From the IMG/VR virus record IMGVR_UViG_2617270938_000001: 23,613 bases of DNA; one strand, given 5' to 3'. Of this stretch, positions 4,527-16,573 are shown piece by piece. The stretch is from a virus (taxonomy: Duplodnaviria; Heunggongvirae; Uroviricota; Caudoviricetes). A program made the position numbers and the translations under genes. Each line of letters opens with the position of its first letter. The stretch's first letter is position 1. The notes under the pieces were generated by a model. It saw nothing but the letters and a program-made list of their open reading frames with translations. It was not told the DNA's origin and made no database searches.

Positions 4527-5087
4527 TATCGCGTCCTCAACAATGAATTTTGTGATGCGGTGCCTGGTGCCTCCAGGTGACGTTAACCAGTTAACAATTA
4601 ACGCCGGATACAGAGAATCCACCCATAACACTGTTTTTGGTTTTAACTGTTCCGCGTGCGCTCAGCCGCATTCACCACATCACAAAATTCACTTTAAAAA
4701 GGGCGGCAGAGCAGTCACGGAGTAAAACTGATACCGCCAAACGTCACCAGAAAATTGATAACAGAGGGCGTTGCAGCGGGGTTGTCACTTAAGCGTATGG
4801 TCAACCTGACAACCCGGTGTCCTCAACGGGGAAGGAATACCCCCGCCATACTTACCGCCGCGCCATTTCGCGGAGTGCCACAACCGGAAGCGCACGGTCG
4901 ACGAAAATTTAACGACAGGCTATCTATGAACCAACAACTTCGCCGTGTGCTTTCGCGTTATGCCCTGACTTTTCAGGGAAATATCCTTTCAGTAAACTGT
5001 CAGTGCCGGATGCTCACCCGTGTCCGGCGCACGCACTCCACCTCACCCGTGGAGAACTCCTTAATCACCAACCCTCAGGAGGGTGAA

Positions 5088-6482: not shown

Positions 6483-6902
6483 CTATGATGCGTTTTGTGC
6501 TTTCTTTTTACGGATTTCTTCGTAGATCATATTGTAATACTGTTTTTTCTCTTCAAGAGTTTTTAATAAGTTATCCGCTTCACTTTCTGGCAGTTCGTCT
6601 AAGAGATCTAAAAAAATACGTTGTCGTGGCGTTAGAACCCTTGTTTCATAACTGGAGGCTGTGTTCGTTGATGATGAAACGATACCATCCATCCATCCCC
6701 GGGGTAACCCAAAGGACTCTTCGATAATCTCCACCATATCATCAGCGATCCGTTTTTTTCCCTTTTTCCCCTCTGGGTACAACATTCTTGATACATAAGA
6801 AGGCTCGCGCCCGATCTTTCTGGCCACGTTAACCGCTTTACCATCGCATTTCTCATCACGAATTTTGATGAGTTGCTGTCGTCTAAATTCATATTTGTCC
6901 AT
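6483..6902 (-). CDS. prophage repressor, cI-like HTH protein without a LexA-type peptidase domain (RacR-like)
   Basis: 139-aa ORF with an HTH-like segment (GKAVNVARKIGREPSYVSRML); divergent from a cro-like gene with operators between them. Too short for a C-terminal S24 autocleavage domain. Confidence 0.75.
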   Translation of the reverse strand: MDKYEFRRQQLIKIRDEKCDGKAVNVARKIGREPSYVSRMLYPEGKKGKKRIADDMVEIIEESFGLPRGWMDGIVSSSTNTASSYETRVLTPRQRIFLDLLDELPESEADNLLKTLEEKKQYYNMIYEEIRKKKAQNAS

Positions 6903-7284: not shown

Positions 7285-7693
7285 ACACATCCGCATGGCG
7301 ATGAATGCCTGGGCGCATCCGGACGGTGAAAAAGTTCCGGCAGCTGAAATAACCAGGGCTTATTTTGAACTGGGTATGACGTTCCCAGAACTGTATGACG
7401 ACAGCCATCCGGAAGCCCTGGCTCGCAATACCCAGAAAATTTTCCGCTGGGTAGAGAAAGACACCCCTGATGCAGTTGAAAAAATTCAGGCGTTGTTACC
7501 AGCTATCGAAAAAGCAATGCCACCTCTGCTGGTGGCCCGAATGCGCAGCCATAGCTCAGCCTATTTTCGGGAACTAGTGGAGACGCGGGAACGACTGGTG
7601 AGAGACGCTGATGATTTTGTCGCAGTGGCGATCGCTGGTTTCAACCAGATGAATCGTGGTGGCCCTGCAGGAAATATTGTGGCTGTGCATTGA
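7268..7693 (+). CDS. YdaT-family protein (partner of the YdaS-like regulator)
   Basis: 141 aa beginning MKIKHEHI..., the N-terminus I recall for E. coli Rac YdaT; overlaps the cro-like gene 3' end. Confidence 0.65.
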   Translation: MKIKHEHIRMAMNAWAHPDGEKVPAAEITRAYFELGMTFPELYDDSHPEALARNTQKIFRWVEKDTPDAVEKIQALLPAIEKAMPPLLVARMRSHSSAYFRELVETRERLVRDADDFVAVAIAGFNQMNRGGPAGNIVAVH

Positions 7694-7764
7694 CTCGCAA
7701 TATTCATACCGGATCACTTCCGGCAATTTGTGAGTAAAAAGATTCGGTATCAAAAGAGGTGAGT

Positions 7765-8835
7765 ATGGCTAACGCCTGGCTCAGATTATGGCATGACATG
7801 CCAAATGACCCTAAGTGGCGAACAATTGCCAGGGTGTCAGGACAGCCAATTGCAACAGTGATGGCAGTGTATATCCACCTCCTGGTGAGCGCGTCACGAA
7901 ATGTCACGCGAGGTCACATTGATGTCACGACAGAAGATTTGGCAAGTGCGCTCGACGTGACAGAAGAGGTAATTGATTCAATTTTGCAGACGATGCAGGG
8001 GCGGGTACTTGATGGTGATTTAATCACTGGATGGGAAAAACGCCAGGTGCTTAAAGAGGACAACGGCAATATTTCGCAAACCGCAAAATCTCCTGCAGAG
8101 CGCAAGAGGGCGCAGCGAGAGAGGGAAAGAAAGCGGGAACAAAATGGCGATTGTCACGGCGCGTCACGAAATGTCATGCACATGTCACGACGAGTCACGA
8201 CAGATAAAGATACAGATAAAGATACAGATCAAGAAGATCAAAACACTATGGTCCATGGCGTAAAAAACGCCACGAACCAGGCAGGGGATGTTCAGACCGT
8301 CACTCCTGGCCAGCCCGCAGGCACGACACCGGAAGCCGATTCAGCGTATGCGCTGAAAGCCGATTCGGGCGCTGTGCAGCAGGTGATGACCGCAAGGCAG
8401 GAGCAATCACACCAACTGCAGCAGCCTGAAGCCGATTCCGCCATTCAGCGGGAAGCCGATCGGGTAGTCCCGGAAAACACCGGGCAGTCTGTGGGACGAG
8501 TGGATTATCCGGATGTGTTCGAACAGGTCTGGCGGGAGTACCCGTTGCGTGCTGGGGCAAACCCGAAGAAATCCGCTTTCAGTGCCTGGAAGGCCAGATT
8601 ACGCGAGGGGGTGCCACCAGAGGCCATGCTGGATGGCGTGAGGCGTTACGCAAGATACCTGGCGGCTACCGGGAAAACGGGAACGGAATTTGTTCAGCGA
8701 GCGACGACTTTTTTTGGACCGGACCGGAATTTTGAGAACCCCTGGTTGCTCCCGGTAAGCGGCACGAACAACCAGCGTTGTGTGAATCATATTTCTGAAC
8801 CGGATACCGAAATTCCACCGGGCTTCAGGGGGTAA
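7765..8835 (+). CDS. phage replication initiator / replisome organiser (lambda O-like role) with internal iterons
   Basis: ATG 7765 with AAGAGG SD 5 nt upstream (the track ORF starts at GTG 7759). Position after the cro-like pair; contains two clusters of TGTCACG iterons (see repeat features), analogous to ori inside lambda O. Confidence 0.65.
   Translation: MANAWLRLWHDMPNDPKWRTIARVSGQPIATVMAVYIHLLVSASRNVTRGHIDVTTEDLASALDVTEEVIDSILQTMQGRVLDGDLITGWEKRQVLKEDNGNISQTAKSPAERKRAQRERERKREQNGDCHGASRNVMHMSRRVTTDKDTDKDTDQEDQNTMVHGVKNATNQAGDVQTVTPGQPAGTTPEADSAYALKADSGAVQQVMTARQEQSHQLQQPEADSAIQREADRVVPENTGQSVGRVDYPDVFEQVWREYPLRAGANPKKSAFSAWKARLREGVPPEAMLDGVRRYARYLAATGKTGTEFVQRATTFFGPDRNFENPWLLPVSGTNNQRCVNHISEPDTEIPPGFRG
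7889..7937. repeat. iteron cluster 1 (GTCACG-type repeats at about 10-bp spacing) inside the replication gene
   Basis: GCGCGTCACGAAATGTCACGCGAGGTCACATTGATGTCACGACAGAAG; a near-copy of cluster 2 about 270 bp downstream. Confidence 0.6.
8153..8230. repeat. iteron cluster 2 (five GTCACG/GTCATG repeats, 10-11 bp phasing) plus adjacent tandem ACAGATAAAGAT x2
   Basis: GTCACGGCGCGTCACGAAATGTCATGCACATGTCACGACGAGTCACGACAG followed by ATAAAGATACAGATAAAGATACAGATCAAG (encoding DKDTDKDTDQ). Confidence 0.6.
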
Positions 8836-8875
8836 GTGTGTATTTCTGGTCATGAGGTAATTTTCAGGAGGGCTT

Positions 8876-9298
8876 GTGGCAAAAGTTTTTACACAAGAAG
8901 AGCGGGAAAAAATTAAAGGGCAGGTTCTTGAACTCGTACGCCAGAGTGGGCGCGAGACGTTACGACAACTGGAAGCTAAAACTGGGGCAACAAGATATCT
9001 GATGAGCGTTCTGGCCAGAGAGCTGGTTGCCAGTGGCGATGTATACAACTCTGGTTACGGGTTATTCCCGTCTGAACAGGCGCGTAAGGACTGGCAAAAT
9101 GCCCGTAAAAAGCTCTCAAGGGCAAAGCTGAAGAAACCATCTGCGGTTGATCCGGACCTTATCTGGTCATTACCTGACGGAGAAATACGTCGCTACGACA
9201 GGCGTCAGAACATAATCTGTCGCGAGTGCCGGAAGAGCGAAGTTATGCAGCGCATATTGTCGTTTTATCAGGGTAATTTTCAGAAGGTGCTGTTGTGA
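8876..9298 (+). CDS. hypothetical basic protein (140 aa), occupies the slot where a helicase loader would be expected but is too short for one
   Basis: GTG start with AGGAGGG SD; Cys-X2-Cys (CRECRK) near the C-terminus. No recognisable motif. Confidence 0.5.
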   Translation: MAKVFTQEEREKIKGQVLELVRQSGRETLRQLEAKTGATRYLMSVLARELVASGDVYNSGYGLFPSEQARKDWQNARKKLSRAKLKKPSAVDPDLIWSLPDGEIRRYDRRQNIICRECRKSEVMQRILSFYQGNFQKVLL

Positions 9299-10731: not shown

Positions 10732-10942
10732 AAACGGTTTGCGGGAAAAGGAGAGTTAAGTAGAATTGCAGCGGGTGCTTGAGGCTATCTGTCTCAGGCA
10801 TGAACACCAAAAGGCAGATAGAGAAAAGCCCCAGTTAACATTACGCGTCCGGCAAGACGCTTAACATTAATCTGAGGCCATATCTATGCTCTACACACGT
10901 AGGTTAGCCTCTTACGTGCCGAAAGGCAAGGAGAAGCAGGCT

Positions 10943-11098
10943 ATGAAGCAGCAAAAGGCGATGCTAATCGCCCTGATCGTCATCTGTTTAACCGTCATTG
11001 TGACGGCACTGGTAACGAGGAAAGACCTCTGCGAGGTACGAATCCGAACCGGCCAGACGGAGGTCGCTGTCTTCACAGCTTACGAACCTGAGGAGTAA
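10943..11098 (+). CDS. hokD: Hok/Gef-family type I toxin (51 aa; matches my recollection of E. coli HokD/RelF)
   Basis: MKQQKAMLIALIVICLTVIVTALVTRKDLCEVRIRTGQTEVAVFTAYEPEE. AGGAGA SD 8 nt upstream. An in-frame upstream extension from ATG 10886 gives a 70-aa mok-like ORF. Confidence 0.9.
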   Translation: MKQQKAMLIALIVICLTVIVTALVTRKDLCEVRIRTGQTEVAVFTAYEPEE

Positions 11099-15469: not shown

Positions 15470-15540
15470 GGCCCTTTAGCTCAGTGGTGAGAGCGAGCTA
15501 AAGGGCCGGGTCGCTGGTTCAAATCCAGCAAGGGCCACCA
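15470..15540 (+). tRNA. tRNA-Ile-like element with aberrant anticodon arm (probable tRNA pseudogene)
   Basis: Acceptor GGCCCTT/AAGGGCC, D-arm GCTC-AGTGGTGA-GAGC, T-arm GCTGG-TTCAAAT-CCAGC and 3' ACCA are intact. The anticodon-arm region is 12 nt (AGCTAAAGGGCC) instead of 17 and is perfectly complementary to the element's own 5' end. Confidence 0.5.
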
Positions 15541-15549
15541 TATCACATA

Positions 15550-15626
15550 CCACCATTAGCTCATCGGGATAGAGCGCCAGCCTTCGAAGCTGGTTGCGCG
15601 GGGTTCGAGTTCTCGATGGCGGTCCA
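15550..15626 (+). tRNA. tRNA-Arg (anticodon TCG)-like; candidate tRNA with imperfect stems
   Basis: D-arm GCTC-ATCGGGATA-GAGC; anticodon arm CCAGC-CTTCGAA-GCTGG; T-loop TTCGAGT; 3' CCA. One A-C mismatch in the acceptor stem and two G-T pairs in the T-stem. Confidence 0.45.
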
Positions 15627-15640
15627 TTTATCGGTATTCT

Positions 15641-15700
15641 GCGTTGTTAGCTCAGCCGGACAGAGCAATTGCCTTCTAAGCAGCTGTGGTTGCACTCCTG
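15641..15700 (+). pseudogene. tRNA-Arg (anticodon TCT)-like 5' fragment lacking a recognisable T-arm and 3' acceptor
   Basis: GCGTTGT-TA-GCTC-AGCCGGACA-GAGC-A-ATTGC-CTTCTAA-GCAGC resembles tRNA-Arg(UCU) through the anticodon loop, but the downstream sequence has no GGTTCGAATCC-like T-arm. Confidence 0.4.
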
Positions 15701-15882
15701 TTGTTTCTGGTGGTGATGGTGGACTTCAGCAGCCGGATAATGTCGGTGCTGTCTGATGGTGTTTTGGTGGCGGGTGTGTGGTTGTTGCTTTCCCGTTGCT
15801 GAAAAAGAAAGCATCAGGCGATTAGCAGGGTATCAGTTACCCGTTGAAATTTTTAAATACCTCACAATTCCACAGCTTGATG

Positions 15883-16080
15883 ATTGTCTGGCTGCCGGAG
15901 AATTTGTTAAAAATAACATCGCATGGTGAATCCCCCTCAGCGGCGGGGCATCTGGCAAAGTGTATGATCCAGAGAACATGCAAATTCAGTAGACAGGCTG
16001 AATTTACCGGGAGGCCCCTGGCACCATGCGACAGACAGAAATTAGGCTATACTTCAGCCCCTCTCCGGAGGGGCTTTTCT
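15883..16080 (+). ncRNA. candidate noncoding RNA element A (about 198 nt), paralog of element B, ending in intrinsic terminator AGCCCCTC-TCCG-GAGGGGCT + TTTT
   Basis: Shares blocks with 16352-16545 (ATTGTCTGGC, TTTGTTAAAAA, CGCATGGTGAATCCCCCT, GAATTnACCGGGAGGCnCCnGGCACCATGC, identical terminator hairpin). The overlapping ORFs are on different strands in the two copies, arguing against a shared protein. Confidence 0.45.
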
Positions 16081-16268
16081 GTGCAGGATGTGTCACAGTT
16101 TCCTGAATTCTGAGTACTGTCCTGTTACTCAGGGTGCTATATTTTCTGACGTGATGAAAGTCTGCCGGAAGGCGGAACGTATCGGAAATGACCCAGTAGA
16201 GAAAACGTTGACTCAGATACCGATGCTGAGTTACCGGGAAACCGGCATCACATGACCGCTATCCTTCC

Positions 16269-16292
16269 AGGCTCGCTCCGGCGGGCCTTTTT
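16269..16292 (+). terminator. intrinsic terminator between the two repeat elements (GGCTCGC-TCCG-GCGGGCC + TTTTT)
   Basis: GC-rich stem with tetraloop followed by a T-run; about 30 bp upstream lie TAAAAT and CATAAT -10-like hexamers preceding element B. Confidence 0.5.
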
Positions 16293-16351
16293 ACTGCAGA
16301 AAACAGTTTTCCCGTAAAATGCCACGTTGCTCATAATTCAGGCTGGCGATT

Positions 16352-16545
16352 ATTGTCTGGCCGGCGGGAAGTTTGTTAAAAAATTTCGCATGGTGAATCC
16401 CCCTGTGCGGAGGGGTAATCAGCGAGTAGGTATATGGGATAATCGCGGATTCAGGTGCTGGTACTGAATTCACCGGGAGGCACCCGGCACCATGCAATGG
16501 CACATAGCGCCACTCTCCAGCCCCTCTCCGGAGGGGCTGTTTATA
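16352..16545 (+). ncRNA. candidate noncoding RNA element B (about 194 nt), paralog of element A, same terminator hairpin (16519-16538)
   Basis: See element A. The conserved 5' block, the GGTGAATCCCCCT block, the GGGAGGC block and the terminator are retained while the middle has diverged. Confidence 0.45.
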
Positions 16546-16573
16546 TTGATTTTGTCAGATGTGAGTAAACTCC

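Follow-up and report, generated by a model that had tools for sequence, protein, structure and literature searches.

Does a lambdoid prophage carry its replication origin inside the gene for its own initiator, and which parts of that gene would then serve as the origin? This question is raised by a gene on the + strand at positions 7765-8835 of the IMG/VR virus record IMGVR_UViG_2617270938_000001 (Caudoviricetes), a stretch of 23,613 nucleotides that we refer to as the window. An earlier sequence-only reading had noticed two clusters of GTCACG repeats in this gene and had suggested that they are the iterons of a candidate origin, a suggestion that is strongly supported by the comparative evidence presented here. 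We propose that the region is probably the theta-type, iteron-type origin of a lambdoid prophage, located within the gene of the initiator that acts on it. The second repeat cluster and the A-rich tract behind it are presumed to form the origin core and the first cluster to be an auxiliary array.

Two phased repeat arrays and an A-rich tract in an initiator gene

The gene and the parts of the putative origin are, in coordinates of the window:

7765-8835, + strand: replication initiator gene of 356 amino acids, annotated as 'phage replisome organizer', which holds the whole putative origin
7893-7929, + strand: iteron cluster 1 with the four cores GTCACG, GTCACG, GTCACA and GTCACG, encoding a loop (amino acids 44-55) between two helices of the N-terminal domain; presumed auxiliary initiator-binding array
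7956-7961, - strand: single inverted iteron core, GTCACG, kept in the Aeromonas and Pseudomonas phage homologues
8153-8199, + strand: iteron cluster 2 with the five cores GTCACG, GTCACG, GTCATG, GTCACG and GTCACG, in the region coding for the interdomain linker; presumed core initiator-binding array
8200-8247, + strand: A-rich tract with the purines on this strand, made of two copies of ACAGATAAAGAT, then ACAGATCAAGAA and GATCAAAAC.., with two GATC sites and 28% GC; presumed DNA unwinding element
8249-8279, no strand assigned: imperfect hairpin with a 13-bp stem directly past the tract, whose membership in the origin is uncertain

On the + strand, the cores of cluster 1 start at 7893, 7903, 7913 (GTCACA) and 7924, that is in steps of 10, 10 and 11 bp, and those of cluster 2 at 8153, 8163, 8173 (GTCATG), 8184 and 8194, in steps of 10, 10, 11 and 10 bp. 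Nine direct and one inverted GTCACG-type cores are thereby found in the gene, the inverted one 27 bp past cluster 1. All cores of the two clusters are asymmetric 6-mers, and the two arrays lie about 260 bp apart in the same orientation. The two GTCACG clusters with a spacing of 10-11 bp and a distance of about 270 bp that the sequence-only reading had described were borne out in every detail by direct reading and by a repeat scan. Eight of the 18 exact GTCACG copies in the window fall within 7893-8199, a density of eight per 310-bp span that compares with a maximum of three in 300 Markov-1 simulations. No other hexamer in the whole window is as locally clustered as CGTGAC/GTCACG.

The tandem repeat ACAGATAAAGAT, which had been placed directly after the second cluster, is present there at 8200 and 8212 (100% each) and at 8224 (83%). 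A search for an AT-rich unwinding element led back to this very repeat, with 8200-8247 as the candidate: the GC content of 0.28 at 8200-8249 is the minimum of the profiled stretch from 7400 to 9000. The GATC (Dam) sites inside the tract, at 8227-8230 and 8236-8239, are reminiscent of the clustering of GATC in oriC. A terminator-like score on the - strand was assigned by a scan to the hairpin at 8249-8279. A conserved palindrome after the A-rich tract, as described for lambda, was considered and rejected, since the stems found at this place in 40 family members were no better than those in shuffled sequence.

The layout is kept across homologous genes

Near-identical DNA is present in temperate coliphages including Tritos, Evi and vB_EcoS-689R5, and the start of the gene is identical to that of Tritos TRITO_36. 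With the N-terminal 160 amino acids as query, tblastn identified homologues with about 70% identity in the Aeromonas phage pAEv1818 and in Pseudomonas D3-like phages, and homologues with 35-48% identity in Ralstonia, Microcystis and uncultured phages. In the genes of the Aeromonas and Pseudomonas phages, the GTCACG cores are at unchanged offsets and accompanied by the inverted copy and by a GATAAAGAT-type tract past cluster 2. In the Ralstonia phage Firinga, GCAACG occurs four times and, after about 250 bp, another five times, followed by an A/G-rich tract, and a Manatee Spring phage has three and then five copies of CGAACG, followed by AGATAAAGAAGAAGAAGA. The core is thus GTCACG, GTAACG, CGAACG or GCAACG depending on the lineage, and within one gene both clusters share the same core. 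The sequence-only reading had named loss of the repeats from homologous genes as grounds for giving up the idea of an origin; homologues with 37-99% identity retain them, and the synonymous sites of the cores are frozen, as described in the next section.

The comparison was widened by a scan of one genome per bacterial species, which yielded 65 further loci. The resulting 66 genes were scored, over their first 700 bp, by the hexamer with the most copies lined up in steps of 9-12 bp, a chain total of at least 4 being counted as positive; PACT201 (L007) was left out due to frameshifts in its sequence. A search for homologous proteins returned mostly fragments, many of them frameshifted, and a scan of viral contigs gave identical E. 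coli prophage copies only and no added diversity. The phased-hexamer layout was present in 53 of the 66 homologous genes, which come from a wide range of bacteria, usually with a chain total of 5 to 9, as compared to none of 480 flanking control segments. In 48 of the 66 genes both clusters occurred at matching offsets, one at about +130 to +160 and the other at about +345 to +490, while eight scored for the downstream cluster only and one for the upstream cluster only. In the latter, L013, both clusters are present in the form GTCAC, and degenerate AACG-type repeats, together with the same tract, are seen in most of the nine 'negatives'. A cluster at the position of cluster 2 is near-universal in the family. 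Of the steps between neighbouring cores, 117 measure 10 bp and 25 measure 11 bp; with a mean of 10.18 bp, the sites come to lie on the same side of the helix.

The number of iterons in cluster 1 differs between some of these genes. In L009 from Escherichia albertii (about 2630-2680), a 21-bp insertion in cluster 1 adds two iterons and thereby seven amino acids to the winged-helix loop, and L035 and L050 have bigger loop expansions built of iteron-like units. The iteron number thus varies via in-frame insertions of units inside a folded domain.

The nucleotide sequence of the cores and of the tract is under selection

Neither 10 nor 11 bp makes up a whole number of codons, so the cores come to lie in differing codon phases (3, 1, 2, 1 in cluster 1 and 2, 3, 1, 3, 1 in cluster 2) and encode SR, VT, GH and VT in cluster 1 and CH, SR, VM, SR and VT in cluster 2. 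For the analysis of synonymous codons, we used 22 homologous genes with the same core from different genera, and considered only conserved residues of the ungapped N-terminal domain. The codons over the cores are nearly fixed: TCA for S44 (21/22), GTC for V47 (22/22), ACG for T48 (22/22), GGT for G50 (22/22), CAC for H51 (21/21), GTC for V54 (22/22) and ACG for T55 (21/22), and the codon of V65, which overlaps the inverted core, is GTG in all 19 genes that could be compared. By contrast, R49, which lies between two cores and has its third base in the spacer, is encoded by CGA, CGT, CGC and CGG, and for the 43 other conserved degenerate codons most synonyms are in use. The mean codon entropy is 0.16 over the cores versus 1.48 elsewhere (Mann-Whitney p = 3.7e-6), indicating that the nucleotide sequence of the cores itself is under selection.

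The same holds for the tract. In 40 loci, GC-rich hosts included, the 40 nucleotides past the last core have an A+T content of 0.69 as compared to 0.45 gene-wide, and a purine content on the + strand of 0.74 as compared to 0.57. The ratio of GAT to GAC codons is 125:5 in the tract versus 247:333 elsewhere (p 1e-33), and that of AAA to AAG codons 110:26 versus 204:218 (p 1e-11). Based on the skewed codon choice and the A/T richness, we conclude that the tract is maintained as DNA too. The family would thus provide a clean natural example of dual coding, in which the constraint imposed by DNA-binding sites freezes the codons of a folded domain.

Repeats within a gene could also stem from the duplication of a peptide or a segment that has no function as DNA. 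Part of the two clusters is indeed an in-frame, partial duplication with an offset of 270 bp (GCGCGTCACGAAATGTCAYGC, 95%, and GTCACGACAGA, 100%), which gives similar peptides, and the repeated peptides SRNVTRGHIDVTT and SRNVMHMSRRVTT that the sequence-only reading had pointed out are both found in the translation of the open reading frame (ORF). With cores read in all three codon phases, however, these peptides are a by-product of the DNA repeats: cores of one and the same cluster specify different residues, their synonymous sites are frozen, and lineages that have changed the core have switched both clusters to the same new one. Codon phase and the synonymous-site test ruled out a repeat at the peptide level, and we give the duplication without DNA function hardly any chance. 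How true peptide-level repeats look can be seen with GAAGCCGAT, for which, unlike for the cores, all copies are in one phase.

The GAAGCCGAT motif (RAAGCCGAT) occurs four times in the gene, at 8332, 8356, 8428 and 8452, with spacings of 24, 72 and 24 within the span 8332-8460, and five times in the window versus 0.41 expected. The four copies in the gene encode E/K-A-D and are also present in the gene of the Stx phage 75/02. Their appearance is that of a segment duplicated in frame within the linker of the C-terminal module, and not that of an iteron.

Start site or control region

The conserved arrays could be initiator-binding sites with a mainly regulatory role, such as autorepression, a roadblock to transcription inside the gene or copy control by pairing of the arrays (handcuffing), with replication starting elsewhere. 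Two separate arrays in the same orientation fit such a role, and cluster 1 has no adjoining A-rich tract and is dispensable in some lineages; in iteron plasmids such as P1 and F, a second array is used for control. On the other hand, an A/T-rich tract, kept against codon usage, invariably comes right after cluster 2, and this is the hallmark of an unwinding element. In addition, the complete 46,360-bp genome of Tritos contains no GTCACR clusters beyond the two in the replication gene, and a second binding region resembling SPP1 oriR is likewise missing from it. We therefore consider it unlikely that the arrays are mainly regulatory. For cluster 1 alone a regulatory role may hold, which is compatible with an origin at cluster 2 and the tract.

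Which protein reads the repeats

The repeats are presumably bound by the product of the gene in which they lie, for which three parts can be distinguished:

7765-8049, + strand: N-terminal winged-helix domain (about amino acids 1-95), presumed iteron-binding domain
8236-8832, + strand: exchangeable C-terminal module (amino acids 158-356), presumed to interact with host replication proteins
8761-8832, + strand: C-terminal tail (amino acids 333-356), ending in ..VNHISEPDTEIPPGFRG and matching the extreme C-terminus of the host DnaT protein

A different protein, either the CII-like activator encoded upstream or a host factor, might bind the repeats instead. CII of lambda recognises direct repeats at a distance of 10 bp and turns on antisense promoters located within genes, and in the window a CII-like/YdaT-like gene is located directly upstream, a weak promoter-like match on the - strand (8177-8150) falls inside cluster 2 and the core type is only loosely tied to the phylogeny of the N-terminal domain. 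But the number of promoter-like sites, three, is no higher than the 3.6 expected in shuffled sequence, and the repeats follow the N-terminal domain into Pseudomonas, Ralstonia and other contexts in which no CII-like gene is annotated. The upstream neighbours belong to 40 unrelated families in 50 loci, and to 18 families among the GTCACG loci, and the downstream neighbours are equally variable (29 families in 41 loci). With neighbours this variable, neither a CII-like protein nor the product of another adjacent gene is favoured as the binder, and we deem binding by another protein very improbable. The sole constant partner of the repeats is the N-terminal winged-helix domain in whose gene they sit, as judged from the compared loci.

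Further information on the unit that is inherited together comes from the Stx phage 75/02. The protein of this phage has 65% identity to the window protein over amino acids 158-356 only, and the similarity begins exactly at the end of the A-rich tract (about 8236). The N-terminal half of the Shigella phage 75/02 Stx gp15 protein (L154, 1194-2282) is unrelated and its gene lacks GTCACG repeats. Repeats of another kind, GGGGCTTCnAAnGG at 1380, 1391 and 1454, are present in it and, at 1659-1688, a purine tract of the type (CAGGAA)n. Phage 75/02 probably combines the C-terminal module with another origin cassette. The swap at amino acid 158 indicates that the N-terminal domain, the repeats and the tract are exchanged as one cassette. 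In lambdoid phages, the N-terminal part of O and ori are exchanged as a unit, and the C-terminal part of O contacts the partner for helicase delivery.

One could argue that the region is mainly a recombination joint and that the repeats are kept for the exchange of modules. The point at which homology with phage 75/02 breaks coincides with the end of the A-rich tract, and the C-terminal modules differ among homologues, both of which point in this direction. However, the joint, though real, is to be expected at a domain boundary anyway, and recombination leaves the 10-bp phasing, the frozen cores, the core shared by both clusters and the lineage-specific core switches unexplained. We regard a mere joint as most improbable.

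Relationship of the initiator to known protein families

The 356-amino acid protein matches PHROG 3729, 'replication initiation protein', from end to end (E 3e-256), and no Pfam family matches it above threshold. The sequence-only reading had called the gene O-like, which did not hold: Phage_rep_O gave no match with the whole protein at E<=0.01 or with either half at E<=1. The sole Phage_rep_org_N (PF09681) match is full-length but sub-threshold, with residues 5-123 aligned to positions 1-119 of the 121 of the profile (E 0.013, 15.9 bits, cut-off 23.3), and 7 of 48 homologues match this family, with a best E of 3e-4. The fold of the N-terminal domain is a winged helix close to the N-terminal domain of DnaD. 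These profile and fold comparisons suggest a distant relationship of the N-terminal domain to phage replisome organizers; homology with lambda O is not supported. The C-terminal module matches PHROG 1701, 'DnaD-like helicase loader' (E 1e-62); the model of its fold is poor (predicted local distance difference test, pLDDT, of 65), and Foldseek gave no match for it.

The resemblance of the tail to DnaT is based on end-anchored matches to the DnaT chains 6aep, 2ru8 and 9zbt_D (E 0.02-0.07) and on an NCBIfam DnaT match of the window protein (E 0.0015). E. coli DnaT ends in ..INSVSEPDNHIPPGFRG and the window protein in ..VNHISEPDTEIPPGFRG. The DNA-binding domain of DnaT (PF17948) has no match in the window protein, of which the last 24 or so residues alone match DnaT.

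A proposed mechanism of initiation

We propose that, at cluster 2 (8153-8199), initiator molecules would line up head-to-tail on one side of the helix, binding via their N-terminal domains. Cluster 1 (7893-7929), about 25 turns upstream, may raise the local concentration of the initiator, loop to cluster 2 or serve copy control. The (GATAAA)n-type tract at 8200-8247 would be melted by the nucleoprotein array with the help of supercoiling and of transcription running rightward across the gene, and the C-terminal module would then bring the replicative helicase. In the E. coli version of the module, the DnaT tail motif would probably recruit the host DnaB-DnaC complex by a DnaT-like contact. We make this guess because of the tail motif and because no phage gene for a helicase or a loader follows the initiator gene in the window, where the next gene is DUF977/Ren-like, or, according to the annotation, in the replication region of Tritos.

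Relatives of the cassette have other partners. A DnaC-like loader is encoded next to it in the Aeromonas phage and behind the gp15 gene of the Stx phage 75/02, a DnaB-like helicase in Firinga, and a 609-amino acid protein annotated as 'replication protein P' in Pseudomonas phi1, which in our reading is a primase-helicase. In the Aeromonas phage pAEv1818 (L002, 2429-4101), the N-terminal domain with its iterons is fused to a complete DnaT C-terminal domain (6aep, E 5.5e-17; PF17948, E 1.6e-16), and the next gene codes for the DnaC-like loader, as in the order of the E. coli dnaT-dnaC operon. This order may bear on a phage origin of dnaT.

Several points weigh against the proposed origin and mechanism. 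The support is comparative and comes from the sequence, and the firing of the origin, the binding of the initiator and the unwinding of the tract are predicted. At least eight family members are without cluster 1. The N-terminal domain is presumed to be the binder by association and fold only, and the helix at the usual recognition position (amino acids 67-77, EEVIDSILQTM) is acidic and hydrophobic, which would be atypical for a reader of DNA. The core type also follows the phylogeny of the N-terminal domain loosely, with the nearest neighbour having the same core in only 38 of 57 cases. Lastly, the helicase-recruitment step depends on a statistically weak match of a 24-residue tail and on a poor model of the C-terminal domain.

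A strict co-evolution of the core type with the phylogeny of the N-terminal domain is not claimed here. The identity of N-terminal domains outside the loop (amino acids 43-56) is 0.69 within core types versus 0.60 between them and, together with the above 38 of 57 cases, this amounts to a weak association only. Similar N-terminal domains with mismatching cores indicate that the core was replaced repeatedly while the scaffold was conserved. Of the protein, no segment but the loop encoded by cluster 1 varies systematically with the core; this loop is rich in R, N, T, H and Q. One might speculate that this loop (amino acids 44-55) reads the iterons, in which case site and reader would be encoded by the same nucleotides, and the reading loop would change of itself whenever the core did. 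Such an arrangement would account for the core switches, the R/N/T/H/Q-rich loop as opposed to the acidic helix, and the insertions of whole iterons in the loop. We see this as a long shot, and it is more likely that, trivially, the loop merely tolerates what the DNA dictates.

Comparison with known origins

Lambda iterons are about 19 bp long and bound by O dimers. In lambda and Stx phages, the ori is located in the O gene, with initiator-binding repeats that are translated and followed by an AT-rich tract, and lambda has a single array of four iterons, each of which is an inverted repeat (PMC7466680). The putative origin described here is similar in that it lies in the initiator gene with the repeats directly followed by an AT-rich tract (28% GC), and in the position of the gene after cro and a cII-like gene and its rightward transcription. 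The sequence-only reading had seen the same arrangement as in lambda, and the layout is indeed analogous, but the cores are here asymmetric, 6 bp long and set 10-11 bp apart in two arrays, the first array inside the region coding for the DNA-binding domain, and no sequence homology of the protein to O was found. Unlike in lambda, there is no P-like gene downstream, its place being taken by the DUF977/Ren-like gene. The DnaT tail, and in relatives the pair of a DnaT domain and a DnaC-like protein, point to a route of helicase recruitment that differs from that of lambda P.

The oriL of SPP1 is located in the organizer gene, gene 38, of which 356 bp suffice in vitro; the organizer binds a set of repeated boxes there, beside an AT-rich DNA unwinding element, and is itself an initiator without an AAA+ domain (PMC5737612). 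The window gene resembles oriL and G38P in its repeated boxes and AT-rich unwinding element embedded in an organizer gene, here as sequence anatomy alone, and in the name 'phage replisome organizer' that NCBI gives to its product. The tract at 8200-8247 occupies the position of the unwinding element in the lambda and SPP1 origins (PMC7466680, PMC5737612). In contrast to Tritos, whose genome is without a second region, SPP1 has a distant oriR, and it encodes its own loader and helicase, which the E. coli module does not; the host phylum differs as well. Compared to lambda and SPP1 together, the distinguishing features are two arrays of short cores one turn apart, of which one lies in the region coding for the DNA-binding domain, and the lack of a distant site.

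The iteron plasmids P1, F, R6K and pPS10 and the ori/crr of phage P4 combine direct repeats, their own winged-helix initiator and an AT-rich region, with two arrays of which one may serve control or act as a cis-acting enhancer. Plasmid iterons are about 17-22 bp long with a spacing of about 22 bp, and the Rep proteins have two winged-helix domains (Rep_3). The module differs from them in that the window protein has no Rep_3 Pfam match and the arrays are inside coding sequence. With regard to DnaT, its C-terminal domain forms filaments on single-stranded DNA and marks the loading site of DnaB-DnaC (PMC13377028). The window protein shares the tail with DnaT (SEPD..IPPGFRG); unlike the window protein with its presumed origin, DnaT is recruited by PriA and PriB to forks and not to a sequence-specific origin. 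Taken together, the module is, with good probability, an iteron-type phage origin in an initiator gene like ori-lambda and SPP1 oriL, and lies outside the lambda O family.

The principle is known, iteron origins in initiator genes being textbook knowledge for lambda and SPP1, where experiments have proven them. No description of the origin of this module was found in the literature searched, the coverage of which was incomplete and is no proof of absence. The family is widespread, unstudied in that literature, and its comparative signal is unusually clean. Should the origin be true, the replication of these prophages could be mapped, cross-talk or incompatibility between co-resident prophages with identical iterons would become predictable, and compact initiator-dependent replicons with several apparently orthogonal cores would be available. 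The DnaT-type links may in addition bear on the origin of the host dnaT-dnaC pair.

Genomic context and further features of the window

Of 5,426 complete E. coli genomes, 2,210 (41%) carry the module, in up to four copies each. In coliphages, the gene is annotated as 'DNA replication protein O', 'primosomal protein I' or 'N-terminal phage replisome organiser', and RefSeq labels for the module read 'hypothetical protein' or 'phage replisome organizer' only. The gene order in the window, with a CI-like repressor gene (6483-6902, - strand), a Cro-like gene, the CII-like/YdaT-like gene, the initiator gene and the DUF977/Ren-like gene, is that of a lambdoid early-right operon.

In the early-left region, the DicF antisense small RNA was identified at 4701-4752 on the - strand (Rfam, 76.7 bits); in Tritos, dicB and ydfD are located beside DicF. 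A sok antitoxin RNA at 10773-10948 on the + strand (Rfam, 117 bits) overlaps a 70-amino acid Hok-like ORF (10886-11098), and the two form a hok/sok-type toxin-antitoxin locus in the prophage; in Tritos, a HokD toxin is encoded downstream of the replication gene. The region 15470-16548 holds two tRNA-like genes, one at 15470-15537 (found by Rfam only, with no ARAGORN call) and a tRNA-Arg gene with the anticodon tcg at 15550-15626, followed by two tandem copies of the small RNA STnc100 at 15891-16084 and 16360-16548.

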